DNA of 64,000 nucleotides from Clostridia bacterium (GTDB lineage: Bacteria > Bacillota > Clostridia > Christensenellales > CAG-138). Positions 3,444 through 45,386 of the stretch are shown in pieces. Under the pieces are notes generated by a model. It made no database searches. It was not told the origin of the DNA and saw only the letters and a program-made list of their open reading frames with translations. Where the stretch lies: contig JAUNBH010000001.1 of NCBI GenBank assembly GCA_030527165.1, positions 30,698 to 94,697 of the forward strand. Direction: 5' to 3'. Position 1 is the first letter of the stretch, and each line of letters opens with the position of its first letter. The position numbers were made by a program, and so were the translations under genes.

Positions 3444-3488
3444 CTCCGCGTAACGCGGCGAGCGACGCCGTGCGCTTGAGAAGCGATA

Positions 3489-3540
3489 AGCGCCGCGGTT
3501 CCCCTCACGGCGAGCGCCGTAGGCAGGGAACCGCGGCGCT
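3489..3540 (+). terminator. Long GC-rich stem-loop downstream of ftsH (possible terminator)
   Basis: AGCGCCGCGGTTCCC (3489-3503) is perfectly complementary to GGGAACCGCGGCGCT (3526-3540), with a 22-nt loop. The downstream U-tract is weak (ctgcgttt). Confidence 0.45.
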
Positions 3541-3584
3541 CTGCGTTTGAAACCTATGCGGCGTCGCTTTATACAGAGGTGTAT

Positions 3585-4436
3585 ATGCGAAAGTACGAAC
3601 TACACGCACATTCCAACATGTCCGACGGCTGCGAGAGTCCCTCGCAGGTCGTCGCGCGCGCTTCGGAGGCAGGCGTAAAGCTGTTGGCGCTGTCGGATCA
3701 CGACTGCATGTTGGGCATAGGCGAAGCGCTGGAGGAAGGAGCGAGGCGGGGTGTAACGGTGCTGCCCGCCATAGAGATAGATGCGGAGTTCGCAGGCGAG
3801 GAAGTGCACATACTGGGCTTGGGCATAGACCGCTTGGACGCGCGGCTCAACGAGGAGATAGCCGCTCAGTGCGCGCGCCGGCGCGAGCGGTTGGAGCGCA
3901 TGGCGGAGGCGCTGCTCGAGCGGGACATTGACGTGCGCCCCGCGCTCAGGCTGTCCGGCGGCAGCGTATCGAGAGTGGACATAGCGCTCGCGTTGATTCG
4001 CATGGGGTTGGCGGAGAGCGTTGCCGACGCGTTTGAGCGCTTCCTTGCGAGCGGCCGCTTTGCCAACCGCGAGTTTGAGCGCATGGATGCTGGGAAGGCG
4101 GTGGAGTTGATAAACGGCGCCTCCGGTGTGGCGGTGCTGGCGCACCCATGCCAGTACGATACGGACGTCGGGGAGCTGGTGCGGGTGCTAAAGCGCCATG
4201 GGCTGTGGGGAGTAGAGGCCTATTACCTTGACGCGACGCCGGAGCAGGCGGCGCGCTTCAGCGCGCTGGCGGCGCGCTGCGGGCTGTTTGTGACCTGCGG
4301 CAGCGACTATCACGGACTAAGCCGGCGACCGCGGGCGCGGATGGGGAGCGCGTTTGTGGACAACGCCGCCACACGGCGGGGCTATGACGCGCTCGTGCGC
4401 AAGTTGGGCGTGGAGGGTTTGGCGTATAGCGATTGA
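3585..4436 (+). CDS. PHP-domain metal-dependent phosphoesterase (TrpH/YciV-like)
   Basis: The N-terminal ELHAHSNMSDG (H-x-H) motif plus LALSDHD and AHP motifs are typical of the PHP family. I prefer the ATG at 3585 (AGAGG RBS) over the GTG at 3579. Confidence 0.8.
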   Translation: MRKYELHAHSNMSDGCESPSQVVARASEAGVKLLALSDHDCMLGIGEALEEGARRGVTVLPAIEIDAEFAGEEVHILGLGIDRLDARLNEEIAAQCARRRERLERMAEALLERDIDVRPALRLSGGSVSRVDIALALIRMGLAESVADAFERFLASGRFANREFERMDAGKAVELINGASGVAVLAHPCQYDTDVGELVRVLKRHGLWGVEAYYLDATPEQAARFSALAARCGLFVTCGSDYHGLSRRPRARMGSAFVDNAATRRGYDALVRKLGVEGLAYSD

Positions 4437-33435: not shown

Positions 33436-33454
33436 ACTCCCGAATGAGGTGCGC

Positions 33455-34438
33455 ATGATTCTGACTGAACTCGTGGCGAAGTACGGTTCGCTCTCCATAA
33501 TAGGAATGTGTAAAAACGCGGGCAAGACGACCGTGCTCAATGCGCTCGTGACGGGCTGGCGCGGAAATGGCGGCGCTTTGGCGCTGACGTCAATAGGGCG
33601 CGATGGAGAGAGTCAGGACGTCGTTACAGGTACGCACAAGCCCCGCATATATGTGCAGGAGGGCGCGCTCATCGCCACCGCTGCGGAGCTGCTTATGCAC
33701 TGTGACGTAACGCAGGAGGTGCTGGGCGCGACGGGCATAAGCACTCCATTGGGCGAAGTCGTGATAGTGCGCGCGCGGAGCGACGGCTATGTACAGCTTG
33801 GCGGGCCGTCCATGGCCCAACAGCTCATATGGTTAAACGGCGAGTTGGCGCGGCTCGGGGCGGAATTAGTCATAATCGACGGCGCGATAAGCCGCAAATC
33901 GCTGTGCGCGCCGGCAGTGACGGAGGCGACGATACTCTGCACGGGCGCGTCGTACTCTCCAAGCATAGAAAAGGTAGTGCAGGATACGGCGCGCGCGGCG
34001 CAGCTGCTCACGCTCCCCAAGAGCGAATACTGGCGGCACGTCCCGCAAGCGCGCATAACGCTGGGCGCGCGCGCGGGTGAGGAGCTGCCGTGTCCCGACA
34101 TGACGCTGCACGAGGCCGTTCGGGCGCATCCTGAGTGTGACAGGGTGTTCATGAGGGGCGCCGTCACGGATTCCATGCTCCTGCCGGTGCTCACGAGCGC
34201 CGCCCCGCTTGAGGGATACGAGTTCTGCGCTGAGGACGCGAGTAAGCTCCTGCTGTCGCCGCAGGTGGTGGAGAAGCTGGAGCTCAGGCGCTGTGCCCTG
34301 AGCGTGTTCAGGCGGACGGAGCTGCTGGCAGTCGCCGTAAACCCCGTCAGCGCGTACGGAACGGACTTTGACCGCTCGGAGCTGAGGCGCAGGATGTGCG
34401 CGGCGGTCGACGTACCCGTCATTGACGTAATGGAGTGA
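33455..34438 (+). CDS. Uncharacterised P-loop NTPase (deviant Walker A, G-x5-GKT)
   Basis: About 327 aa. N-terminal SIIGMCKNAGKTTVLNAL, a probable Walker B-like LVIIDGA, and a C-terminal domain of unknown function. The stop lies 3 nt before the start of the next gene. Confidence 0.7.
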   Translation: MILTELVAKYGSLSIIGMCKNAGKTTVLNALVTGWRGNGGALALTSIGRDGESQDVVTGTHKPRIYVQEGALIATAAELLMHCDVTQEVLGATGISTPLGEVVIVRARSDGYVQLGGPSMAQQLIWLNGELARLGAELVIIDGAISRKSLCAPAVTEATILCTGASYSPSIEKVVQDTARAAQLLTLPKSEYWRHVPQARITLGARAGEELPCPDMTLHEAVRAHPECDRVFMRGAVTDSMLLPVLTSAAPLEGYEFCAEDASKLLLSPQVVEKLELRRCALSVFRRTELLAVAVNPVSAYGTDFDRSELRRRMCAAVDVPVIDVME

Positions 34439-34441
34439 GAG

Positions 34442-35905
34442 ATGATAGTGCTTAGCTATGAATTGATGGAAAAGAGCGGTCTGCGCTACGTCCTGGACAT
34501 GTTGGGCACGTGCTCGCCGTATGGCGCCCAGCGCAAGCGCAGGCTCCGCGTATACGACCGCGCGAGCAGGGCAGAGCTCGTCGACGAGCTGTACAACGTG
34601 CGCCGCATAGTGGAGTACATGGGGGAGCACGACTGCTCCGGCCTGGAGCGGCTGCTCATGGGGCTCAAGGACATACGGCGTTCCGTGGAGGCGCTCGGCT
34701 CGCTCGCACTGAGCGATGTCGAGCTGTTTGAGCTAAAGCGCTTCTTCCTGCAGCTGGAGCGGATAGCGCCGGAATACGCGCAGCTTGACGAGGCGTGCGA
34801 GCTCAGGGGGATGCACATAGCGAGCTATCCCGAGGCGCTGCGCATTTTAGACCCCGAGGGCCAGCGCGCACCCACTTTCATGGTGAGCTCGCGGTATTCG
34901 GAGCGCTTGACGGCCATACGGCGCGAGAAGCGCGACATAGAGGAGCGCATACGCAGCGCAGACGGTGGGGAGCGCGAACAGCTGATGCTGGAGCGCACGC
35001 GAATAGCCGCCTGCGAGGACGAGGAGCAGGCGAATGTGCGCCGCGGGCTGTGCGAGCGGCTCCTGCCGTACGCGCGGGACGTGCTGCTCACCATAGACTC
35101 CCTGGGCAGGCTCGACTTCACGCTGGGCAGGGCGCGGCTTGCGCGGGCTCACGGCTGTTGCGCGCCAGAGTTGACCGATGCTCGCGTGGCGTTTGAAGGA
35201 ATGACACACCCGCAGGTTGCGCACGCGCTGGAGCAGCGCTCCAAGGCGTTTACGCCCATAGACGTGTCCGTGGACAGGGGGGTCACGGTCATCACCGGCG
35301 CCAATATGGGCGGAAAGAGCGTCGCGCTCAATTCGATAGCGCTCAACGTGCTCTGTGTGCACTGCGGCATATTTCCCTTTGCCCGCTCCGCGGCCGTGCC
35401 GCTGTTTGACGGCCTGCACATGATTTCGGAGGACGCGCAGGACGCGTCTCGCGGGCTGTCCAGCTTCGGCGCGGAGATGCTGCAGCTCGACGGGGCGGTA
35501 TCGCAGCTTCGGGAGGGGGAGCTGGCGCTGCTGCTCATAGACGAGCTCGCGCGGGGCACGAATCCCGACGAGGGCGCGTCAATAGTGCGCGGAGTGGTCG
35601 CCATGCTGCGCGCCGAGGCGGCGGTGACGGTGCTCGCGACGCACTACGACGACGTCGCGTGCCTGGCGGACGCGCACTACCAGGTCAAGGGCATGGCGCA
35701 GGCGGATCTCGCGGAGCTGCGGCGGAGGATACAGCTGCAGCGGACGGCGTCCATAGAACTCATAGAGGAGTGCATGGATTACGGTATAGCGCGCGTCGAC
35801 GGGAATAACGGGGTTCCCAAGGACGCCGTAGAGATATGCGAGCTGCTGGGGATTAACGAAAAAATCATGAGAAGCATAAAGAATTTCGTTGACAAGCGGC
35901 GCTGA
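34442..35905 (+). CDS. MutS domain V-type ABC ATPase without mismatch-binding or Smr domains (MutS-related protein)
   Basis: 487 aa. Walker A is ITGANMGGKSVALNSIAL, Walker B is LLLIDELARGTNPDEG, and LATHY is the TH motif. The N-terminal half is helical and shows no MutS domain I motif. Confidence 0.8.
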   Translation: MIVLSYELMEKSGLRYVLDMLGTCSPYGAQRKRRLRVYDRASRAELVDELYNVRRIVEYMGEHDCSGLERLLMGLKDIRRSVEALGSLALSDVELFELKRFFLQLERIAPEYAQLDEACELRGMHIASYPEALRILDPEGQRAPTFMVSSRYSERLTAIRREKRDIEERIRSADGGEREQLMLERTRIAACEDEEQANVRRGLCERLLPYARDVLLTIDSLGRLDFTLGRARLARAHGCCAPELTDARVAFEGMTHPQVAHALEQRSKAFTPIDVSVDRGVTVITGANMGGKSVALNSIALNVLCVHCGIFPFARSAAVPLFDGLHMISEDAQDASRGLSSFGAEMLQLDGAVSQLREGELALLLIDELARGTNPDEGASIVRGVVAMLRAEAAVTVLATHYDDVACLADAHYQVKGMAQADLAELRRRIQLQRTASIELIEECMDYGIARVDGNNGVPKDAVEICELLGINEKIMRSIKNFVDKRR

Positions 35906-35917
35906 GAGTTATATCCT
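35889..35917 (+). promoter_or_regulatory. Candidate promoter embedded in the 3' end of the MutS-like gene (TTGACA-17 nt-TATCCT), positioned to start transcription just before the riboswitch
   Basis: Perfect -35 at 35889-35894 and a weaker -10 TATCCT at 35912-35917. The predicted TSS is about 10 nt upstream of the riboswitch P1. Confidence 0.4.
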
Positions 35918-35933
35918 CTATACATAAGAATAG

Positions 35934-36097
35934 GTTGGTAGAGGCGCGGTGCGCAAGGTAGTGCGAAGCGGTGACATGGGGCGTGTGGCTTCGCGCGAAT
36001 GTGCGGCCGCCGAAAGGACGGAGCGGCCCCCGCTCGGTTCTTGGGCGCAACGCTCAGCGCGGTGCGACTGTCGTCCGGGAGACGGAGCGCTATCAAT
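35934..36097 (+). promoter_or_regulatory. Lysine riboswitch (L-box) aptamer
   Basis: The 5' GTTGGTAG-AGGCGC and the 3' ACTGTC-GTCcgggaGAC-GGAGCGC-TATCAAT follow the conserved L-box pattern (..UAGAGGnGC....GCCGAAAGG....ACUGUC-hairpin-GGAGnGCUA..). P2 is GCGAAGC/GCTTCGC, and P3 is GGCCGC-CGAAAGGACGGA-GCGGCC with the GCCGAA motif. The length of about 164 nt is in the typical range. Confidence 0.85.
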
Positions 36098-36137
36098 GCA
36101 CGAACGGTGATTTCGTGTGTTGGTAGCTTTTTGTTTT
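36089..36137 (+). terminator. Intrinsic terminator forming the riboswitch expression platform (shares its 5' arm with the aptamer P1 3' strand)
   Basis: GCTATCAA (36089-36096) pairs with TTGGTAGC (36120-27). The inner stem is CACGAA/TTCGTG. TTTTTGTTTT follows at 36128-36137. Confidence 0.75.
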
Positions 36138-36207
36138 GGATAATGCGCCAACAGGGGGAAGGTATTTCCCCGTAGGCGCTTTCAATTACAGACAGGGGGA
36201 TTTGGTT

Positions 36208-36588
36208 ATGAAGTCAATGATAAGGTTGCGCATGAGCGCGCACGACGCGCATTACGGCGGGAATCTTGTGGACGGCGCCAGAATGCTGCAGCTGTTCGGA
36301 GATGTTGCTACGGAGCTCCTCATACAGCGCGACGGCGACGAGGGTCTGTTCAAGGCGTACGACATGATTGAGTTCATGGCGCCCGTGTACGCCGGGGACT
36401 ACATCGAGGCAGTCGGAGAGATAGTCGCGGAGGGCAATACGTCCCGCAAGATGGTCTTTGAGGCGAGGAAGGTAATCGTGCCGCGCCCCGACATAAACGA
36501 TTCGGCGTGCGACGTGCTGCCGGAGCCCATAGTAGTGTGCCGCGCGAGCGGAACGTGCGTGGTACCCAGGGACAAGCAGAGAAAGTGA
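36208..36588 (+). CDS. kal: 3-aminobutyryl-CoA ammonia-lyase (hotdog fold)
   Basis: 126 aa. The size, the lysine-fermentation context and [29 protein letters not shown]...[12 protein letters not shown] fit a hotdog fold. AGGGGGA RBS before the ATG at 36208. Confidence 0.8.
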
Positions 36589-36596
36589 GGACAGGT

Positions 36597-37424
36597 ATGG
36601 AAAAACTCATTATAACCGCGTGCATATGCGGCGCGGAAGTGACCAAGGAACACAATGCGGCGGTGCCGTACACCGTGGAGGAGATAGCACAGCAGGCATA
36701 CGACGCGTACAAGGCGGGCGCTTCGATAATACACCTTCACGTTCGCTGGGACGACGGCACGCCCACGCAGGACAGAGGGCGCTTTGAGGAGTGCATGAAG
36801 GCGATATACGAGCGCTGCCCGGACGTCATAATACAGCCCTCGACCGGCGGCGCGGTGGGCATGTCCAACGATGAGCGGCTCCAGCCCATAACGCTTCGCC
36901 CGGAGATGGCGACGTTGGACTGCGGGACGTGCAATTTCGGCGGGGACGACATATTCGTAAACACCGAGAACATGATAATCGACTTCGCGCAGAAGATGAA
37001 CGCGCTGGGCATAAAGCCCGAGATTGAGGTGTTCGACAAGGGCATGATAGACATGGCGAAGCGCCTCGCGAAGAAGGGTCACATCAAGACGCCCATGCAC
37101 TTCGACTTCGTAATGGGCGTAAACGGCGGCATATCCGGCGACGCGCGGGACCTGGTGTTCATGGCGGGCAGCATACCCGAGGGCTCGACCTGGACGGTTG
37201 CGGGCGTAGGCAGGTTCGAGTTCCCCATGGCGGTGATGGGCATCATCATGGGAGGCCATGTGCGCGTGGGCTTTGAGGACAACGTGTACCTGTCCAAGGG
37301 AGTGCCGGCAAAGAGCAACGGCGAGTTGGTTGAGAAGGTCGTGCGGCTTGCGCAGGAGCTGGGCAGGGAGATAGCCACTCCGGACGAGGCGAGGGGAATA
37401 CTCGGCCTTCCGCCGAGGGCGTGA
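36597..37424 (+). CDS. kce: 3-keto-5-aminohexanoate cleavage enzyme (BKACE/DUF849 family)
   Basis: 275 aa. MEKLIITACICGAEVTKEHNAAVPYT..IIHLHVR..GGAVG, a TIM-barrel BKACE signature. Confidence 0.88.
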   Translation: MEKLIITACICGAEVTKEHNAAVPYTVEEIAQQAYDAYKAGASIIHLHVRWDDGTPTQDRGRFEECMKAIYERCPDVIIQPSTGGAVGMSNDERLQPITLRPEMATLDCGTCNFGGDDIFVNTENMIIDFAQKMNALGIKPEIEVFDKGMIDMAKRLAKKGHIKTPMHFDFVMGVNGGISGDARDLVFMAGSIPEGSTWTVAGVGRFEFPMAVMGIIMGGHVRVGFEDNVYLSKGVPAKSNGELVEKVVRLAQELGREIATPDEARGILGLPPRA

Positions 37425-37474: not shown

Positions 37475-38515
37475 ATGACAATGAAGGGCAACAAGTACGG
37501 GATCCACAGGGTAATAGAGCCGCAGGGCGTGCTCACGCAGGCGGCGTACCGCATTGACAACGACATGAGCAAGCGCTACTCGAACGAGATAATCTGCGAC
37601 GTCATTTCGCTCAACATCGACTCCGCGTCTTTCACTCAGATCGAGGAAGTATGTGGCGGCGACGAGCAGAAGATTGGCGAGATGATACTCTCGATAGTGG
37701 CGGAGCGCGGCAAGCAGCAGAATCCGGTCACGGGTTCGGGCGGAATGTTCATAGGCAAAGTCGCCTACATAGGCGAAGACCTCAAGGACAGGGACCTCAA
37801 GGTGGGCGACAAGATAGCGTCGCTCGTATCCCTCTCGATGACGCCTCTGCGCATAGACAAGATACTCGCCATACACAAGGACATAGACCGCGTAGACATA
37901 ATCGGTCAGGCGGTGCTGTTCGAGAGCGGCATATACGCCAAGCTGCCCGAGGACATGAGCGAGGCGCTGGCGCTTGCGGCTCTGGACGTGGCGGGTGCTC
38001 CCGCGCAGGCGCGCAAGCTCCCCAAGGAAGGGGACAGCGTGCTCATAATAGGCGCGAACGGCAAGTCCGGCGTGCTGTGCGGCTATGAAGCGATGAAGGC
38101 GGTAGGGCCCAACGGCAACGTCGTGGGCGTAGTCCGCAATCCCAAGCAGGTACCGGGTCTCATAGAGCTGGGCGTGTTCCACAAGGTCATCGTGGCCAGC
38201 GCGACCGAGCCCGTAGCGCTGCTCGAGGCGGCGCTCGAGGCGAACGACGGCAAGGAGTACGACATATCGATAAGCTGCGTAAACGTGGAGAGCTGCGAGA
38301 TGAGCGCGATACTCCCCGTACGCGACGACGGACTGGTCTATTTCTTCTCCATGGCGACGAGCTTCACGAAGGCCGCGCTGGGAGCGGAGGGCATAGGCAA
38401 GGACGTTACCATGATAGTGGGCAACGGCTACACGAAGGATCACGCAGAGATAACGCTGAACATACTGAGGGAGAGCGAGAAGCTGCGCAAGCTCTTCGAC
38501 CAGAAGTACGTATAA
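37475..38515 (+). CDS. kdd: L-erythro-3,5-diaminohexanoate dehydrogenase
   Basis: 346 aa. N-terminal NKYGIHRVIEPQGVLTQAAYRIDND and a Rossmann GANGKSG. Context is between kce and kamA. Confidence 0.85.
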   Translation: MTMKGNKYGIHRVIEPQGVLTQAAYRIDNDMSKRYSNEIICDVISLNIDSASFTQIEEVCGGDEQKIGEMILSIVAERGKQQNPVTGSGGMFIGKVAYIGEDLKDRDLKVGDKIASLVSLSMTPLRIDKILAIHKDIDRVDIIGQAVLFESGIYAKLPEDMSEALALAALDVAGAPAQARKLPKEGDSVLIIGANGKSGVLCGYEAMKAVGPNGNVVGVVRNPKQVPGLIELGVFHKVIVASATEPVALLEAALEANDGKEYDISISCVNVESCEMSAILPVRDDGLVYFFSMATSFTKAALGAEGIGKDVTMIVGNGYTKDHAEITLNILRESEKLRKLFDQKYV

Positions 38516-38590: not shown

Positions 38591-39844
38591 ATGAGAAAGA
38601 GCAGGGAATTCGGTTTGTTCAAGGACGTGCCCGACGAGCTGTGGAACGACTGGCATTGGCAGGTCACAAACCGCATAGAGACATTGGAAGACCTCAAGAA
38701 GTATGTTGAGCTCACACCCGAGGAGGAGGACGGCGTAGCAAAGTGCCTCTCCACGCTGAGAATGGCCATCACGCCGTATTATCTGTCGCTCATAGACCCC
38801 ACGGATCCACACGACCCCGTGAGGAGGCAGGCGATACCCACGGCATTGGAGCTGCACCAGGCGGATGCCGACCTGTTGGACCCGCTGCACGAGGATACGG
38901 ACTCGCCTGTGCCGGGACTCACGCACAGGTATCCGGACAGGGTGCTGCTGCTCATAACCGACCAGTGCTCCATGTACTGCCGCCACTGCACGCGGAGGCG
39001 TTTTGCGGGTCAGAACGACTGCGCCGTGCCCAAGAAGCAGATAGAGGCGTGCATAGAGTATGTCAGAAACCATCCCGAAGTGCGCGACGTGCTGCTCTCG
39101 GGCGGCGACGCGCTCATGCAGAACGATGACGTGCTGGAGTTCATAATCAGCTCGCTGCGCGCGATACCCCACGTTGAGATAGTAAGGCTGGGCTCGCGGA
39201 CGCCGGTGGTCATGCCGCAGAGGATAACGCCGGAGCTGTGCGCTATGCTCAAAAAGTACCATCCCATATGGCTCAACACTCACTTCAACCATCCCAACGA
39301 GATAACCGAGGAGTCCGCGGCGGCTTGCGCAAGGCTCGCGGACGCCGGCATACCCCTCGGCAACCAGAGCGTGCTGCTCGCGGGCGTGAACGACTGCGTA
39401 CACGTCATGAAGAAGCTCGTGCAGGACCTGGTGAGGATAAGGGTGCGGCCGTACTACATCTACCAGTGCGACCTCTCCATGGGGCTGGAGCACTTCCGCA
39501 CACCCGTGGCGAAGGGCATAGAGATAATCGAGGCGCTGCGCGGTCACACATCCGGTTACGCGGTACCGACATTCGTCGTGGACGCGCCCGGCGGCGGCGG
39601 CAAGACGCCCGTAATGCCCAATTACATAATCAGCCAGTCTTACAATAAGGTGATACTGCGCAACTTCGAGGGCGTGATAACGACCTATACGGAGCCGGAG
39701 CACTACGAGGAGACCTGTCAGTGCGAGGTCTGCCGCGGGGCGAAGCAGGCGGAGCTCATAGGCGTGGCGGGACTTGAGAGAGGGCAGCAGCTCGCCATGG
39801 AGCCCAAGGATTTGGCGCGGTCTAAGCGCGGCCGTCACGATTGA
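38591..39844 (+). CDS. kamA: L-lysine 2,3-aminomutase (radical SAM, PLP)
   Basis: 417 aa. WNDWHWQV, the radical-SAM CSMYCRHCTRRR, and a C-terminal Cys cluster CQCEVC. Confidence 0.95.
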   Translation: MRKSREFGLFKDVPDELWNDWHWQVTNRIETLEDLKKYVELTPEEEDGVAKCLSTLRMAITPYYLSLIDPTDPHDPVRRQAIPTALELHQADADLLDPLHEDTDSPVPGLTHRYPDRVLLLITDQCSMYCRHCTRRRFAGQNDCAVPKKQIEACIEYVRNHPEVRDVLLSGGDALMQNDDVLEFIISSLRAIPHVEIVRLGSRTPVVMPQRITPELCAMLKKYHPIWLNTHFNHPNEITEESAAACARLADAGIPLGNQSVLLAGVNDCVHVMKKLVQDLVRIRVRPYYIYQCDLSMGLEHFRTPVAKGIEIIEALRGHTSGYAVPTFVVDAPGGGGKTPVMPNYIISQSYNKVILRNFEGVITTYTEPEHYEETCQCEVCRGAKQAELIGVAGLERGQQLAMEPKDLARSKRGRHD

Positions 39845-39937
39845 TAAAAGCGGGCGCGGCAGCTGTTGCGCTTGAGCCGCGCACAAGGCGAAAAACGTGG
39901 GGCGCGCTCTGGCGCGCCCCGTGATATGGAGGTACAG

Positions 39938-41497
39938 ATGGAGAGCAAACTGCATCTTAACAGAGAACTGGTCGATAAGGCGCGCGAGTCCGCCAGGCGC
40001 ATAGCTCAGGACACGCAGCGCTTTATAGACGTTCACACCACCGTTACGGTCGAGAGAGCGGTGTGCAGGCTGCTGGGGATAGACGGAGTAAACGCCGTAG
40101 ACGTGCCGCTGCCCAATGTGGTCGTAGACCACATGACGGAGAAGGGGATACTGGCTTCCGGCGCGGCGTACTACATAGGCAACGCCATGGCGAACACGGG
40201 TCTGACGCCCCAGGAGATAGCCGAGAGGATAGACGCGGGCGAACTCGACCTGACGCGACAGGGCGCGCACAGCATAGCCGAGATAAGGGCAAATATCGTG
40301 CCTGTGGCGGAGCGCACTGTCGCACGGATACGCGCCAATGTCGCCAAGCGAAACGAGTATCTCGGCGAGTTTGGGGACAAAGAGGGCCCGTACTTGTATG
40401 TAATAGTGGCGACGGGCAACATATATGAGGACATTACGCAGGCGAGGGCTGCCGCGAAGCAGGGCGCGGACATAATCGCCGTGATAAGGACGACCGGGCA
40501 GAGCCTGCTGGACTATGTGCCCTACGGGGCCACTACGGAGGGCTTCGGCGGCACATACGCCACGCAGGAGAACTTCCGGCTCATGCGTGCCGCACTGGAC
40601 GAAGTCGGACGGGAGGAGAAGCGCTACATCAGGCTGTGCAACTACTGTTCGGGGCTGTGCATGCCGGAGATAGCCGCTATGGGTGCGCTCGAGCGGCTGG
40701 ACGTCATGCTCAACGACGCGCTCTACGGCATACTCTTCCGCGACATCAACATGCAGCGGACGATAGTTGACCAGTACTTCTCGAGGGTAATAAACTCCTT
40801 TGCGGGTGTGATAATAAACACCGGGGAGGACAATTATCTCACGACGGCGGACGCGGTCGAGGAGGCGCATACAGTCTTGGCGTCACAGTTCTTAAACGAG
40901 CAGTTCGCGCTCTGCGCGGGACTGCCGGAGGAACAGCAGGGGCTGGGGCATGCTTTCGAGATATCGCCCGATGTAGAGAACGGTTTCCTGTACGAACTCG
41001 CCCAGGCGCAGATGGCGAGGGAAATATTCCCCAAGGCGCCGCTCAAGTACATGCCGCCCACCAAATTCATGACGGGCAACATATTCAGAGGGCATGTTCA
41101 GGACGCGCTGTTCAACATGGTGACCATACTGACTTCGCAGAAGCTGCACCTGCTGGGAATGCTCACGGAGGCGATACACACGCCTTTCATGAGCGACAGG
41201 GCGCTGTCCATTGAGAACGCGCAGTACATATTCCGCACAATGAAGGATTTGGGCGCGGAAATCGAGTACAAAGAGGGCGGCATAATGGAGACGCGCGCCA
41301 ACGAAGTGCTCGCGAAGGCGACAAGCCTGCTCGCGGAGATAGAACAGATGGGGCTGTTTGCGACGCTTGAGAAGGGCATTTTCGCTGACATAAAGCGCTC
41401 GCGCGAGGGCGGCAAGGGCCTTGCGGGAGTGGTGATACGGAGCGAGGAGTACTTCAACCCGTTTATAGAGCTGATGAAAGGCGGTGCGGAGTCATGA
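39938..41497 (+). CDS. kamD: Beta-lysine (D-lysine) 5,6-aminomutase alpha subunit
   Basis: MESKLHLNRELVDKARE..HTTVTVERAVCRLLGIDGV..YVIVATGNIYEDITQA..GGTYATQENFRLMR closely matches my recollection of Clostridium sticklandii KamD. I prefer the ATG at 39938. Confidence 0.93.
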   Translation: MESKLHLNRELVDKARESARRIAQDTQRFIDVHTTVTVERAVCRLLGIDGVNAVDVPLPNVVVDHMTEKGILASGAAYYIGNAMANTGLTPQEIAERIDAGELDLTRQGAHSIAEIRANIVPVAERTVARIRANVAKRNEYLGEFGDKEGPYLYVIVATGNIYEDITQARAAAKQGADIIAVIRTTGQSLLDYVPYGATTEGFGGTYATQENFRLMRAALDEVGREEKRYIRLCNYCSGLCMPEIAAMGALERLDVMLNDALYGILFRDINMQRTIVDQYFSRVINSFAGVIINTGEDNYLTTADAVEEAHTVLASQFLNEQFALCAGLPEEQQGLGHAFEISPDVENGFLYELAQAQMAREIFPKAPLKYMPPTKFMTGNIFRGHVQDALFNMVTILTSQKLHLLGMLTEAIHTPFMSDRALSIENAQYIFRTMKDLGAEIEYKEGGIMETRANEVLAKATSLLAEIEQMGLFATLEKGIFADIKRSREGGKGLAGVVIRSEEYFNPFIELMKGGAES

Positions 41498-42285
41498 GCG
41501 GAGGATTGTACAACACCAGCAAGCAGGATTTCGACAAGACGCTGGATCTGCGCAAGCTGAAGGCGTACGGCGACACGATGAACGACGGCAAAGTTCAGCT
41601 TTCCTTCACGCTGCCCGTGAAGAACGACGAGCGCGGCATGGAGGCGGCGCGGCAGTTGGCGCGGCAGATGGGCGTTTCGGATCCCAACGTCGCGCACAGC
41701 CAGAGCCTCGATGCGGAGTTTACGTTCTACGTCGTTTACGGTTCGTGTGCGCATACCGTTGACTACGAGGGCATACATGTGGAGACTGTTGAGGCGGAAA
41801 CCATGGGCATGGAGGAAGTCAACGAGTACATACGGGAGAACATAGGGCGCAAGGTCATAATGGTGGGCGCGTCCACAGGCACGGATGCGCACACCGTGGG
41901 CATAGACGCCATAATGAATCGCAAGGGCTTTGCCGGCCACTACGGATTGGAGCGCTATGAGATGATAGAGGCGTACAATCTCGGCGCGCAGGTGACCAAC
42001 GAGGACTTCCTCAAACAGGCGTTGGAGCTAAACGCGGACGTGCTGTTGGTCTCGCAGACGGTGACTCAGAAGGACGTGCACATAGCCAACCTGACAGAGC
42101 TGATAGAGCTCATGGAGGCGGAGGGCGTGCGCTCGCGCTTCATAGTGGTGTGCGGCGGCGCGCGGATAACTCACGAGCTCGCGAAGGAGCTCGGCTATGA
42201 TGCGGGCTTCGGGGCACAGAAGTACGCGGATGACGTGGCGACCTTTGCCGTTACTGAGATGGCAAAGCGCAATATGGGCAAATAA
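41494..42285 (+). CDS. kamE: Beta-lysine 5,6-aminomutase beta subunit (B12-binding and PLP-binding)
   Basis: 263 aa. It overlaps kamD by 4 nt (ATGA). It has a Rossmann-like B12-binding domain (VGASTGTDAHTVGIDAI, base-off His motif DxHxxG). Confidence 0.92.
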   Translation: MSGGLYNTSKQDFDKTLDLRKLKAYGDTMNDGKVQLSFTLPVKNDERGMEAARQLARQMGVSDPNVAHSQSLDAEFTFYVVYGSCAHTVDYEGIHVETVEAETMGMEEVNEYIRENIGRKVIMVGASTGTDAHTVGIDAIMNRKGFAGHYGLERYEMIEAYNLGAQVTNEDFLKQALELNADVLLVSQTVTQKDVHIANLTELIELMEAEGVRSRFIVVCGGARITHELAKELGYDAGFGAQKYADDVATFAVTEMAKRNMGK

Positions 42286-42300
42286 CAAGGAGGCATTTAG

Positions 42301-43443
42301 ATGGACTTTCAACTGTCGAAGGAACATGCTCTGCTGAGGGAGCTCTATCGGAGCTTCGCTCAGGCTGAAGTCAAGCCTTTGGCCGAGGAAATCGACGAAC
42401 AGGAGCGCTTCCCCGTGGAGACGGTAAAGCAGCTCGGGCGGTATGGGTTCATGGGTATACCGTATCCGAAGGAGTACGGCGGAGCAGGGGCGGACACATT
42501 GGCGTACGTCATGGCGATAGAGGAGCTGTCGCGGGTATGCGGCACCACGGGCGTCGTAGTATCCGCGCACACATCGCTGTGCTGCGGGCCGATATACGAG
42601 TTCGGCACTGAGGAGCAGAAGCGCAAGTACCTGCCGGGGCTGTTGTCAGGCGAGCGCGTAGGCGCCTTTGGGCTTACGGAGCCCGGGGCGGGCACGGACG
42701 CGGCGGGGCAGCAGACAAAGGCCGTGCTCGCGGGCGATAACTGGGTACTCAACGGCACCAAGATATTCATAACCAACGCCGGCCACGCGGACGTGTTCAT
42801 CATATTTGCCATGACGGATAAGGCGCAGGGCACGCGGGGCATATCCGCGTTCATAGTGGAGCGCGGCTTCGAGGGCTTCAGAGTGGGCAAAGAGGAGAAG
42901 AAGATGGGCATAAGGGGCTCGTCCACCTGCGAGCTCATAATGGAGGACTGCATAGTGCCCAAGGAGAATCTGCTGGGCGGATTGAACAAGGGCTTCAAGG
43001 TCGCGATGAAGACGCTGGACGGCGGCAGGATAGGCATTGCTGCGCAGGCGCTCGGCCTCGGGGAGGGCGCGGTTGACGAGGCGATAAAGTACGTCAAGGA
43101 GCGCAAGCAGTTTGGACGCAGGATATCTCAGTTCCAGAACACGCAGTTCAAGCTTGCGGATATGAGTACGCGCATGCAGGCGGCGCAGTACCTCGTGTAC
43201 AGCGCGGCGCTCGCCAAGGACAGCGGCGCTGCGTACAGCAAGGAGGCGGCGATGGCTAAGCTGTTCGCATCGGAAGCCGCCAATGACGTGACGCGGCAGG
43301 CGGTGCAGCTCTTTGGCGGATACGGCTACACGCGCGAGTATCCGGTGGAGCGCATGATGCGCGACGCGAAGATAACCGAGATATACGAGGGCACGAGCGA
43401 AGTCATGCGCATGGTCATTGCCTCGGCGCTCGGTGTTAATTAG
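42301..43443 (+). CDS. bcd: Butyryl-CoA dehydrogenase (short-chain acyl-CoA dehydrogenase, Etf-dependent)
   Basis: 380 aa. GLTEPGAGTDA, YEGTSE and other typical ACAD motifs. etfB and etfA follow directly. Confidence 0.9.
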   Translation: MDFQLSKEHALLRELYRSFAQAEVKPLAEEIDEQERFPVETVKQLGRYGFMGIPYPKEYGGAGADTLAYVMAIEELSRVCGTTGVVVSAHTSLCCGPIYEFGTEEQKRKYLPGLLSGERVGAFGLTEPGAGTDAAGQQTKAVLAGDNWVLNGTKIFITNAGHADVFIIFAMTDKAQGTRGISAFIVERGFEGFRVGKEEKKMGIRGSSTCELIMEDCIVPKENLLGGLNKGFKVAMKTLDGGRIGIAAQALGLGEGAVDEAIKYVKERKQFGRRISQFQNTQFKLADMSTRMQAAQYLVYSAALAKDSGAAYSKEAAMAKLFASEAANDVTRQAVQLFGGYGYTREYPVERMMRDAKITEIYEGTSEVMRMVIASALGVN

Positions 43444-43453
43444 GGAGGCGCTT

Positions 43454-44245
43454 ATGAACATAATCGTATGCATTAAGCAGGTTCCGGACACCACGGAGGT
43501 CAAGCTCGATCCCGTTACGGGAACGCTGATAAGAGAGGGCGTGCCGAGCATAATAAACCCGGATGACAAGGCAGGGCTGGAAGCGGCGCTGAGAATAAAG
43601 GAGCAAAACGGCGCGCGCGTGACGGTGGTCAGCATGGGCCCGATGCAGGCGGACGTCGCACTCCGGGAAGCGCTAGCGATGGGCGCGGACGAGGCGTACC
43701 TCATAAGCGACAGGGCGTTTGGCGGCGCGGACACCTGGGCGACTTCGTACACGATAGCCGCTGCGATACGCACTCTCGATTACGACCTGATAATTGCGGG
43801 GCGGCAGGCGATAGACGGCGATACGGCGCAGGTAGGGCCGCAGATAGCGCAGCACCTGGGGCTTCCGCAGGTGAGCTATGTGGAAGCGGTGGAGCGTGTG
43901 GAGGCGGGTTCGCTCGTGCTGCGCAGGCAGTTTGAGGACAGGTATCACATAGTCGAGGTAGCCACCCCGTGCGTGATAACGGTGCTGTCCGAGCTCAACA
44001 AACCGCGCTACATGAGCGTGTCCGGCGTAATGGATGCGTACCGCGAGAAGACGGTGAACGTGCTCACGCTCGCGCAGCTCGAATCCGTGATAGACAAGGG
44101 CAACATCGGCCTGGGCGGTTCGCCCACCAGGGTCAAGCAGAGTTTCACGAAACAGCCGAAGGCGAAGGGCGAAAAGTACGAGGTCGACGCCGACGAAGCG
44201 GTACGGCTCATAGTGGAATGGCTGGAAGCCAGGCACATCATCTGA
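43454..44245 (+). CDS. etfB: Electron transfer flavoprotein subunit beta
   Basis: MNIIVCIKQVPDT..INPDD..AGRQAIDGDT. I prefer the start at 43454 over the 43418 extension. Confidence 0.92.
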   Translation: MNIIVCIKQVPDTTEVKLDPVTGTLIREGVPSIINPDDKAGLEAALRIKEQNGARVTVVSMGPMQADVALREALAMGADEAYLISDRAFGGADTWATSYTIAAAIRTLDYDLIIAGRQAIDGDTAQVGPQIAQHLGLPQVSYVEAVERVEAGSLVLRRQFEDRYHIVEVATPCVITVLSELNKPRYMSVSGVMDAYREKTVNVLTLAQLESVIDKGNIGLGGSPTRVKQSFTKQPKAKGEKYEVDADEAVRLIVEWLEARHII

Positions 44246-44252
44246 CGGGGGC

Positions 44253-45251
44253 ATGAACATGAGTAGAAACATTCTTGTATTTGCGGAGCAGCGGAACGGC
44301 GTGCTGCAGAAGGTAGCCGCGGAGCTGATAGGCAAGGCGTCGGAATTGGCGCAAAAGCTCGATGAGCAGGTGATTGCGCTCATACTGGGGCACGGCGTTG
44401 AGCGCTTAGCGCAGGAGGCGATAGAATACGGCGCCGACAGTGCGATAGTCGTAGACGCGCCCGAGCTCGGGGAGTATTTGACCGCGCCGTACACGCGGGC
44501 GGCGGTTGAAGCGATAAGGCGCGCAGAGCCGGGCATAGTGCTCTACGGGGCGACCTCCTTAGGCCGCGACCTCGCGCCGAGGGTGTCCGCCACGGTAAAG
44601 ACGGGCCTGACCGCGGACTGCACCAAGCTGGAGATAGACGAGGAGTCGCGCTTGCTGCTGATGACGCGCCCCGCGTTTGGCGGCAACATAATGGCGACGA
44701 TAGTGTGCGCGGAGCACCGCCCGCAGATGGCGACCGTGCGCCCCGGCGTGATGCAGGCGCTCCCGCGCGACGCGGGCAGGCGCGGCGAGGTGACGCGGCT
44801 TGACGTGGCGTTCTGCGAGGAGGACAATCGCGTGCGCATACTGGAAGTCGTAAAGGGCGACAGAAAGGACGTCGACATAACGGAGGCGAAGGTGCTCGTG
44901 TCCGGCGGCAGGGGCATAGGTGGCGCTGAGAAGTTTGCGCTGCTCAAGCAGCTGGCGGAGCAATTCCCCGGCGGTGAGATATCCTCGTCGAGGGCAAATG
45001 TGGACGCGGGTTTCATAGGTCGTGAGCGCCAGGTCGGGCAGACGGGGAAAACCGTGCGGCCGAAGCTCTACATAGCCTGCGGCATATCGGGAGCCATACA
45101 GCACATAGCGGGAATGGAGGACGCCGACTTCATAATCGCCATAAACAAAGACCCGGGCGCGCCAATATTCGATGTGGCGGACTTGGGCATAGTCGGGGAT
45201 CTCAACGTGGTGCTGCCGAAGCTGATAGCCGCGCTCGAGCGGCGGGCATAG
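44253..45251 (+). CDS. etfA: Electron transfer flavoprotein subunit alpha
   Basis: 332 aa. The C-terminal FAD-binding block is VSGGRGIG...SRANVDAGF..QVGQTGKTVRPKLYIACGISGAIQH. Confidence 0.92.
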   Translation: MNMSRNILVFAEQRNGVLQKVAAELIGKASELAQKLDEQVIALILGHGVERLAQEAIEYGADSAIVVDAPELGEYLTAPYTRAAVEAIRRAEPGIVLYGATSLGRDLAPRVSATVKTGLTADCTKLEIDEESRLLLMTRPAFGGNIMATIVCAEHRPQMATVRPGVMQALPRDAGRRGEVTRLDVAFCEEDNRVRILEVVKGDRKDVDITEAKVLVSGGRGIGGAEKFALLKQLAEQFPGGEISSSRANVDAGFIGRERQVGQTGKTVRPKLYIACGISGAIQHIAGMEDADFIIAINKDPGAPIFDVADLGIVGDLNVVLPKLIAALERRA

Positions 45252-45295
45252 GCGGTTCGCGCCACTGAGGAGAGTTGTTAATCCGGCTTTACGCT

Positions 45296-45321
45296 GACAG
45301 CGCGGTGCGTACCGCGCTGTC
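45296..45321 (+). terminator. Stem-loop between the convergent genes etfA and the lipoprotein gene (probable terminator)
   Basis: GACAGCGCGGT-gcgt-ACCGCGCTGTC, an 11-bp perfect stem followed by actcttta. Confidence 0.5.
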
Positions 45322-45386
45322 ACTCTTTATCCGGCGGCGCCATGCGCGCCCGTTTAGGGCGCAGCCGCGCTTGTCGCCGTATGGCG

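Follow-up and report, generated by a model that had tools for sequence, protein, structure and literature searches.

Introduction

Lysine riboswitches of the L-box class (Rfam family RF00168) are, in their natural form, usually regarded as OFF switches, and applied papers treat them as repressors while citing an engineered lysine-ON variant (PMC10974012). Activating LYS elements before lysine-catabolic genes were predicted by Rodionov et al. in 2003, as cited in PMC2258182, and the prediction appeared again in 2007 and 2017. Parts of the terminator stem are buried in certain lysine riboswitches of the ON type (PMC2258182), and lysine riboswitches located at kal-kce in Clostridium sticklandii, at kal in Fusobacterium nucleatum and at pspF-kal-kce in Thermoanaerobacter have been assigned a positively regulating role (Mukherjee et al. 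2017, PMC5584792). The full-text literature searched, which lacks the 2003 papers, yielded no experimental work on a natural lysine ON element. Here, an element of this kind is described in a 64,000-nucleotide (nt) stretch of DNA from a Clostridia bacterium of the CAG-138 lineage (assembly GCA_030527165.1, contig JAUNBH010000001.1, positions 30,698 to 94,697; the whole stretch is hereafter called the window), where a lysine aptamer precedes an operon that begins with kal, the gene coding for 3-aminobutyryl-CoA ammonia lyase. It is very probable that this element is a transcriptional lysine ON riboswitch ahead of a lysine-fermentation operon.

Anaerobes of gut and sludge form butyrate and ammonia by lysine fermentation, and a switch of this type would show amino-acid-fermenting Clostridia committing to lysine fermentation only when free lysine is available. 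The kal-associated lysine riboswitches share a simple design, in which helix P1 of the aptamer is set against a terminator, that is directly testable and usable. A sequence-only reading of the window had already proposed ON logic, pointing both to the 2003 prediction, in agreement with the way later papers cite it (PMC2258182, PMC5584792), and to the lack of a known biochemically characterised example, which accords with the literature search above. The contrast between OFF and ON elements used throughout is taken from the literature.

A complete lysine aptamer behind a promoter-like site

The aptamer was recovered with cmscan at 35931-36100 on the forward strand, with a score of 68.0 bits (gathering score 30, E 1.2e-15). 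The match is untruncated, spanning model positions 1-182 of 182, lies 38 bits over the threshold and is the sole Rfam match within the 64-kb window. In the cmscan alignment the core motifs AGAGGCGC, GCCGAAAGG and ACUGUC...GGAGCGCUA agree with the RF00168 consensus, and the components of the five-helix junction are all present, namely AGAGGNGC after P1, GCCGAA, CUGUC, and GGAGNGCUA before the 3' strand of P1. Helices P1 to P5 are paired, with five non-canonical positions that all fall within the P2 to P4 stems. The 5' strand of P1 (GUUGGUAG) occupies 35934-35941 (+) and its 3' strand (CUAUCAAU) 36090-36097 (+); the P1 drawn by cmscan joins 35936-35941 with 36090-36095 and can be extended to 8 bp. 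The start of kal lies 108 nt 3' of the aptamer on the same strand, placing the aptamer in the kal leader. The L-box aptamer and all of the coordinates given for it in the sequence-only reading were thus borne out, the match standing over the gathering cutoff on the expected strand. No second complete aptamer was found, RF00168 matching only once in the window, so that the leader does not qualify as a pseudo-cooperative tandem lysine riboswitch; the aptamer-like sequence before a second hairpin, described below as T2, amounts to about 17 nt only.

A sigma-70-like promoter at 35889-35917 (+), consisting of TTGACA (35889-35894), a 17-nt spacer and TATCCT (35912-35917), lies about 16 nt 5' of P1 and matches the consensus at 10 of 12 positions. 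It is the only such site in 35000-37000, with none between the terminator T1 (see below) and kal. Transcripts from it are predicted to start at about 35924-35926, roughly 8-10 nt ahead of P1. The -35 box overlaps the end of the preceding gene, kamC, and TTGACA-17-TATAAT is found at the equivalent spot relative to P1 in three relatives (loci L035, L038 and L073).

Two kinds of repeat were observed in this region. A 12-nt inverted repeat (92% complementary) connects 35899-35910, at the end of kamC and 5' of the predicted start, with 36049-36060 in the P4 region of the aptamer; it might be relevant solely to kamC read-through transcripts, in which the aptamer could misfold. Two exact direct repeats within the aptamer, GCGCGGTGCG (35944-35953 and 36057-36066) and GACGGAGCG (36017-36025 and 36081-36089), have their copies in different helices and are probably a by-product of the G+C-rich stems, though they would permit alternative misfolds.

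Terminator T1 shares a strand with P1

An intrinsic terminator, T1, is located at 36089-36137 (+). It was found independently by a terminator scan, where the sequence-only reading had likewise drawn a terminator on the 3' strand of P1, and consists of a hairpin at 36089-36127 with a 16-bp stem and a 7-nt loop, followed at 36128-36137 by the U run UUUUUGUUUU (TTTTTGTTTT in the scan; 9 U in 10). Folded alone, T1 has a free energy of -20.5 kcal/mol against -7.2 +/- 2.1 kcal/mol for shuffled sequences (z -6.4), none of 200 shuffles being as stable. Its 5' end lies at -1 relative to the first nucleotide of the P1 3' strand, and eight nucleotides are common to both helices. The segment (G)CTATCAA at 36089-36096 has as its partner either the P1 5' strand or, within T1, the 3' arm TTGGTAGC at 36120-36127, directly before the U run. 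As the 5' foot of T1 is the 3' strand of P1, the two helices are mutually exclusive.

The two partners of the shared strand carry the same octamer, GTTGGTAG, whose only two copies in the 64 kb are those at 35934-35941 and 36119-36126; both the octamer and the shared CTATCAA segment had been placed exactly in the sequence-only reading. The repeat was rejected as stand-alone evidence, since two or more copies turned up somewhere in 26 of 100 shuffled versions of the window. What makes it significant is that it lies on both partners of the P1 3' strand, together with the conservation of that arrangement in other genomes.

Folding of growing transcripts orders the two states. For transcripts ending at 36100 or 36112 the unconstrained minimum free energy (MFE) structure includes the aptamer with P1, while from 36128 onward, when the 3' arm of T1 is present, the T1 state is better than the P1 state by 8.1-12.7 kcal/mol. 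When P1 is enforced, the stem that remains comprises 36098-36118 only (7 bp, -6.2 kcal/mol) and ends 9 nt short of the U run. The picture given in the sequence-only reading of two octamer copies competing for one segment is upheld as regards mutual exclusion but not as regards equal competitors, the balance of stability lying with T1.

Conservation of the overlap across kal loci

The comparative set comprised 80 kal loci from other genomes (numbered with the prefix L), one per species, across which Kal is highly conserved. RF00168 occurs 5' of kal in 39 of the 80 loci, all of them from Clostridia or Fusobacteria, and no lysine riboswitch was found within 3 kb upstream of kal in the Bacteroidales, Lutibacter and Marinitoga loci. 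Since the aptamer is missing from kal loci outside the Clostridia and Fusobacteria, the pathway must be regulated differently there. The loci without an aptamer include L009, L012, L014, L015, L018, L020, L023, L024, L026, L028 and L029.

Among the 40 leaders formed by the 39 relatives and the window, a hairpin of <= -12 kcal/mol begins at the P1 3' strand in 35. In 25 leaders the hairpin begins between positions -2 and 0, counted from the first nucleotide of the P1 3' strand, with a U run immediately after it, while 11 leaders, all from Clostridium sensu stricto (L001, L004, L008, L010, L017, L022, L030, L033, L042, L049 and L069), contain an equivalent hairpin without a U run and then a canonical terminator about 60 nt downstream. 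In these eleven, the 3' arm of the P1-overlapping hairpin (UUCAUUGCAU) is nearly identical to the 3' arm of the downstream terminator, suggesting a four-helix cascade running from P1 through the hairpin and an antiterminator to the terminator. The layout is unclear in the remaining four leaders, from Fusobacterium (L016, L051, L060 and L062), which have a good aptamer and no convincing P1-overlapping terminator, and the same holds for the Fusobacterium-type metagenome loci L090, L105-L113, L118 and L122. A regular-expression screen yielded 33 further leaders of like kinds among 80 metagenome loci. Overlap of P1 with a terminator is the norm for kal-associated lysine riboswitches and the window is not exceptional; the 'unusually clean' design ascribed to it in the sequence-only reading is shared by the 25 leaders with a terminator at the P1 3' strand, with 11 more having the hairpin.

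Covariation was assessed in an anchored pseudo-alignment of the three strands, with hairpin ends taken from predicted folds and with related sequences, so that the figures are to be taken as support and not as probabilities. P1 is 86.7% paired with double-sided changes at five pairs, and the foot of T1 is likewise 86.7% paired with double-sided changes at six. For both helices covariation lay above that of 500 of 500 shuffles and of every slid register. The window itself shows compensatory G-C and U-A pairs, where most relatives have A-U and C-G, in both P1 and T1.

One relative, L007, contains a second complete lysine aptamer (3466-3643, 64 bits) between kal and kce with the same overlap of P1 3' strand and terminator; with aptamers before both kal and kce, each of the two genes would have its own ON switch. 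The closest Kal relatives in the genomes and metagenomes are only 92% identical and have different leaders, and the exact KamA sequence of the window matched no recorded protein.

The conservation of the overlap bears on whether the aptamer could be a decayed or non-regulating relic, with T1 serving as the terminator of the kamBC transcript and kal being expressed from another signal. The kamBC genes do end 30 nt 5' of the aptamer with no other terminator after them, and T1 is thermodynamically dominant. Against this, the aptamer scores 38 bits over threshold with all core motifs, the only promoter-like site in 35000-37000 lies 5' of the aptamer and not between T1 and kal, and dozens of genomes in which the upstream genes differ have kept the overlap of aptamer and terminator through compensatory changes. 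The relic explanation is thus very improbable.

Predicted switch logic

The favoured reading of a lysine ON switch implies the following course of events. RNA polymerase would start about 10 nt 5' of the canonical lysine aptamer. Should lysine occupy the aptamer during synthesis of the following ~30-40 nt, P1 (35934-35941 with 36090-36097) would remain closed, leaving the 3' arm of T1 with only the upper 7 bp of its partner and no hairpin against the U run, and transcription would proceed into kal-kce-kdd-kamA-kamD-kamE-acyl-CoA dehydrogenase-etfBA. If lysine is absent, strand invasion of P1 by the T1 3' arm would allow the 16-bp terminator to form, and transcription would stop at ~36137. Because T1 is more stable than P1 by 8.1-12.7 kcal/mol, control would have to be kinetic, with lysine acting within a short transcription window; by analogy with the pbuE adenine ON switch, the outcome is likely to be a kinetic decision and not an equilibrium of equal competitors. 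Judging from the aptamer motifs, lysine is the presumed ligand of this copy, and the folding model predicts that read-through would rise with lysine. This reading builds on the identity of the aptamer, the overlap of P1 and T1, their relative stabilities, the downstream genes, and the conservation and covariation of both helices, all of which the analysis shows. Every computational test (aptamer match, overlap, energetics, genes and covariation) agrees with the lysine-dependent anti-termination put forward in the sequence-only reading.

The geometry of the leader also bears on the ligand and on the direction of control. Ligand specificity is unreadable from a covariance-model score, and the ligand could in principle be a lysine-related metabolite such as beta-lysine or another pathway intermediate, or the element could repress; nothing specific speaks for either. 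The junction motifs fit the lysine consensus, while repression would require an antiterminator between P1 and T1, for which there is no room because T1 begins 1 nt before the P1 3' strand. Activation by the substrate of the pathway is, moreover, the logical direction for a catabolic operon. A different ligand or a repressing element is judged very improbable.

Several points weigh against the lysine ON switch as set out above. Ligand binding and lysine-dependent read-through are predictions for this element. Nearest-neighbour energies favour T1 by 8.1-12.7 kcal/mol, and the function of the switch thus depends on kinetics beyond the computed energies. In silico, the hairpin T2 (-21.3 kcal/mol) is present whichever of the two states is adopted, and expression would be capped independently of lysine if its weak U tail still terminates. 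The pseudo-alignment used for covariation is anchored on predicted hairpin ends, which biases it towards pairing, and the loci are phylogenetically related, so that the shuffle counts do not represent probabilities.

The second hairpin and its counterparts in relatives

Between T1 and kal lies a further module, T2 (36138-36189, +). Its first part, GGAUAAUGCGCCAACAG (36138-36154), is a decayed copy of the aptamer 3' end; a hairpin occupies 36145-36179, and the U tail UUUCAAUUAC (36180-36189) is weak and makes a poor U run. The hairpin has a free energy of -21.3 kcal/mol (z -4.7) and is present in the full-length fold both with and without enforcement of P1. The sequence-only reading had missed both this hairpin and the upstream kamB and kamC genes, and its description of the leader, correct for the aptamer and T1, was to that extent incomplete. 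In relatives, a strong second terminator occupies the position of T2, and its 5' side is a copy of the P5 3' strand, J5/1 and the P1 3' strand, 13-20 nt in length with the consensus AUGGWGCGCUAUUG. In the G+C-rich relatives L142, L150, L153 and L155, 'UUUGGACGGAGCGCUAUGG' and a terminator align with the T2 module of the window, which reads UUUGGAUAAUGCGCCAACAGG where these read UUUGGACGGAGCGCUAUGG. The window copy, GAUAA/UGCG/CCAACAG, is devoid of the CUA that pairs with the UAG found invariably in P1, and the U run of the window module is likewise decayed. The entire module (P5 loop, P5 3' strand, J5/1, P1 3' strand and terminator) is duplicated in L146, with a compensatory stem change from G-C to A-U. 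On this sequence comparison, T2 in the window appears to be a remnant of a second closing-strand and terminator module that is intact in relatives, and it is most likely a stable structure or, at most, a weak attenuator.

A 9-mer, ACAGGGGGA, is present twice, in the 5' arm of T2 (36151-36159) and at the ribosome-binding site of kal (36192-36200). The 3' arm of T2 (UUUCCCCGU, 36165-36173) could pair with either copy, which may provide a link between T2 folding and translation. The repeat was not seen in the G+C-rich relatives.

If T2 were a working second terminator that is also relieved by lysine, the window organism would possess a two-checkpoint switch in which one binding event opens two terminators. 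Under such a relay, closure of P1 would free the 3' arm of T1 (UGUUGG, 36118-36123) to pair with the 5' arm of T2 (CCAACA, 36149-36154) as an antiterminator. When P1 is enforced in a transcript that ends at 36160, the T1 3' arm does pair with 36144-36156 in the MFE structure, the duplex in the window having an energy of -11.0 kcal/mol. Across 24 loci, matched duplexes between the T1/H1 3' arm and the T2 5' region averaged -8.47 kcal/mol against -6.43 kcal/mol for mismatched ones (0 of 10000 permutations), in a test that mixes two clades, so that the number of independent events behind it is small. The relay suits the eleven Clostridium sensu stricto leaders well, and something of the kind is needed in them, as their first hairpin has no U run and only T2 is a canonical terminator. 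In the window, however, T2 is ~10 kcal/mol more stable than the relay pairing and folds with or without P1 enforced, and its tail UUUCAAUUAC is poor; throughout the leaders with both T1 and T2, the stability of T2 exceeds that of the relay duplex by 10-20 kcal/mol. With T2 at -18 to -28 kcal/mol and the duplex at -5 to -11 kcal/mol, the relay was set aside as a weak thermodynamic account of how T2 is controlled, both for the window and for its class-B relatives (those that, like the window, have one complete aptamer followed by a second terminator). A two-checkpoint switch in the window organism is accordingly judged improbable.

The copies in relatives raise a different possibility, namely an undescribed architecture of kal-associated lysine riboswitches in which one aptamer core is served by two successive closing strands. 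This is advanced tentatively and is more doubtful than probable. A first terminator followed by a copy of the P5 3' strand, J5/1 and P1 3' strand, the copy forming the foot of a second strong terminator, was found in at least 17 distinct leaders; leaders with the copy include L003, L005, L006, L019, L021, L034, L036, L040, L043, L094, L101, L142, L146, L150, L153 and L155. Once the polymerase has passed T1, T1 would form and release the aptamer core for serial re-use, and if lysine were still present the copy could re-close the core and block T2, constituting a second lysine checkpoint with no second aptamer.

The P5 3' nucleotides of the copy pair at 5 of 5 positions with the P5 5' strand of the same locus in 16 of the 17 distinct leaders. 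The two covary, UCAUG occurring with CAUGG or CGUGG and UCAUC or UCGUC with GAUGG or GACGG, and in L150 and L155 the native strand GAUGA and the copy GACGG both fit the P5 5' strand. Matched pairings scored 4.94 against 4.33 for mismatched ones (0 of 20000 permutations). For eight loci the plain MFE structure of a transcript ending just after the copy combines a formed T1 with the P1 5' strand and the copy paired in exact P1 register. Serial re-use is weakened by the fact that only one or two positions covary, and hence few independent events are involved. In some leaders a local P5-like hairpin precedes the copy instead, the exact-register test of P1 5' strand and copy was positive in only about half of the loci, and the duplex energies between the P1 5' strand and the T2 5' region gave no general covariation signal (-4.30 matched versus -4.28 mismatched). 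An alternative closing strand was also considered for the window and rejected, as its copy (36138-36154) is without CUA and the MFE structure never pairs it with the P1 5' strand. Neither the relay nor serial re-use is convincing for T2 in the window.

It is possible that the copy module originated as a relic of the known double lysine riboswitches. A review of tandem riboswitches includes no single-aptamer, two-platform architecture among those catalogued (PMC9481103). The duplicated closing strands in relatives are the most novel observation made here and, if serial re-use is true, they would provide a sharper riboswitch response without duplication of the aptamer.

Organisation of the lysine-fermentation cluster

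Gene identities were derived from NCBIfam equivalog models. Downstream of the riboswitch, all on the forward strand, the ribosome-binding site and start of kal span 36192-36210 (GGGGGA at 36195-36200, ATG at 36208-36210). The kal gene (36208-36588; NF052388, 197.9 bits, cutoff 160) is followed by kce, coding for the 3-keto-5-aminohexanoate cleavage enzyme (36597-37424; NF052387, 462.7 bits, cutoff 382), kdd, coding for L-erythro-3,5-diaminohexanoate dehydrogenase (37475-38515; NF052381, 257.7 bits, cutoff 200), and kamA, coding for lysine 2,3-aminomutase (38591-39844; TIGR03820, 626.5 bits, cutoff 525.4). The alpha and beta subunits of lysine 5,6-aminomutase are encoded by kamD (39866-41497; NF052384, 924.4 bits) and kamE (41494-42285; NF052385, 398 bits). 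The last three genes code for an acyl-CoA dehydrogenase (42301-43443), EtfB (43418-44245) and EtfA (44253-45251), each with a match under the equivalog cutoff that permits a family-level name only. The operon listed in the sequence-only reading, from kal to etfBA, is therefore confirmed at equivalog level for kal, kce, kdd and kamADE, and only at family level for bcd-etfBA. A hairpin at 45295-45322 probably marks the end of the operon.

Directly upstream on the same strand are kamB (33449-34438; NF052386, 317.7 bits, cutoff 210) and kamC (34442-35905; NF052383, 466.7 bits, cutoff 300), both annotated as lysine 5,6-aminomutase reactivase, and the region from kamB to etfA holds the full lysine-fermentation gene set. 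Since kamB and kamC precede both the promoter and the riboswitch, this element does not control them; the riboswitch is consequently situated inside the lysine-fermentation cluster and gates its distal nine genes only. A kamBC transcript would also be ended by T1.

Comparison with known riboswitches

The predicted activating LYS elements of Clostridium (Acetoanaerobium) sticklandii, Fusobacterium nucleatum and Thermoanaerobacter resemble the window element in aptamer class, pathway and proposed ON logic, including the burial of part of the terminator within the aptamer. The window organism differs in being a spore-former of 60% G+C, its switch precedes the whole pathway from kal to etfA with kamBC located before the switch, and its leader bears a second, decayed module.

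The L-box of Bacillus subtilis lysC, an OFF switch, shares the RF00168 family and an output through transcription termination with the window. In lysC, an antiterminator lies between P1 and the terminator and lysine brings about termination (PMC2258182), whereas the window has no such antiterminator, P1 and T1 overlap directly and the predicted logic is inverted.

Double lysine riboswitches of the pseudo-cooperative kind are known from 14 representatives, with a terminator of its own for each aptamer (Sherlock et al. 2022, PMC9481103), and thus have two terminators in series, as does the window leader. Unlike these, the window and the class-B relatives contain one complete aptamer, and their second terminator is preceded only by the 13-20 nt copy of the P5 3' strand, J5/1 and P1 3' strand. 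Singlet variants of the glycine riboswitch with a 'ghost aptamer' likewise retain a degenerate remnant of a second aptamer beside a working one (PMC9481103), comparable to the copy in the window; the glycine ghost aptamer supports tertiary contacts, whereas the window copy is a duplicate of a closing strand tied to its own terminator. The glycine riboswitch of gcvT, an ON switch with a different fold, is similar to the window element in that an amino-acid riboswitch switches on the degradation of its own ligand (PMC11477304).

With regard to mechanism, the adenine ON switch of B. subtilis pbuE (ydhL) is comparable to the window element in the competition between the P1 3' strand and the 5' arm of the terminator. 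The two differ in aptamer class and ligand, the lysine aptamer being ~2.5 times larger, and pbuE controls an efflux gene and not a catabolic operon. In pbuE the terminator state is the more stable one and control is kinetic. The ON logic of pbuE is given in PMC2258182. Set beside these systems, the window element is well formed and an ordinary member of the predicted class of lysine-ON riboswitches that precede lysine-fermentation genes.

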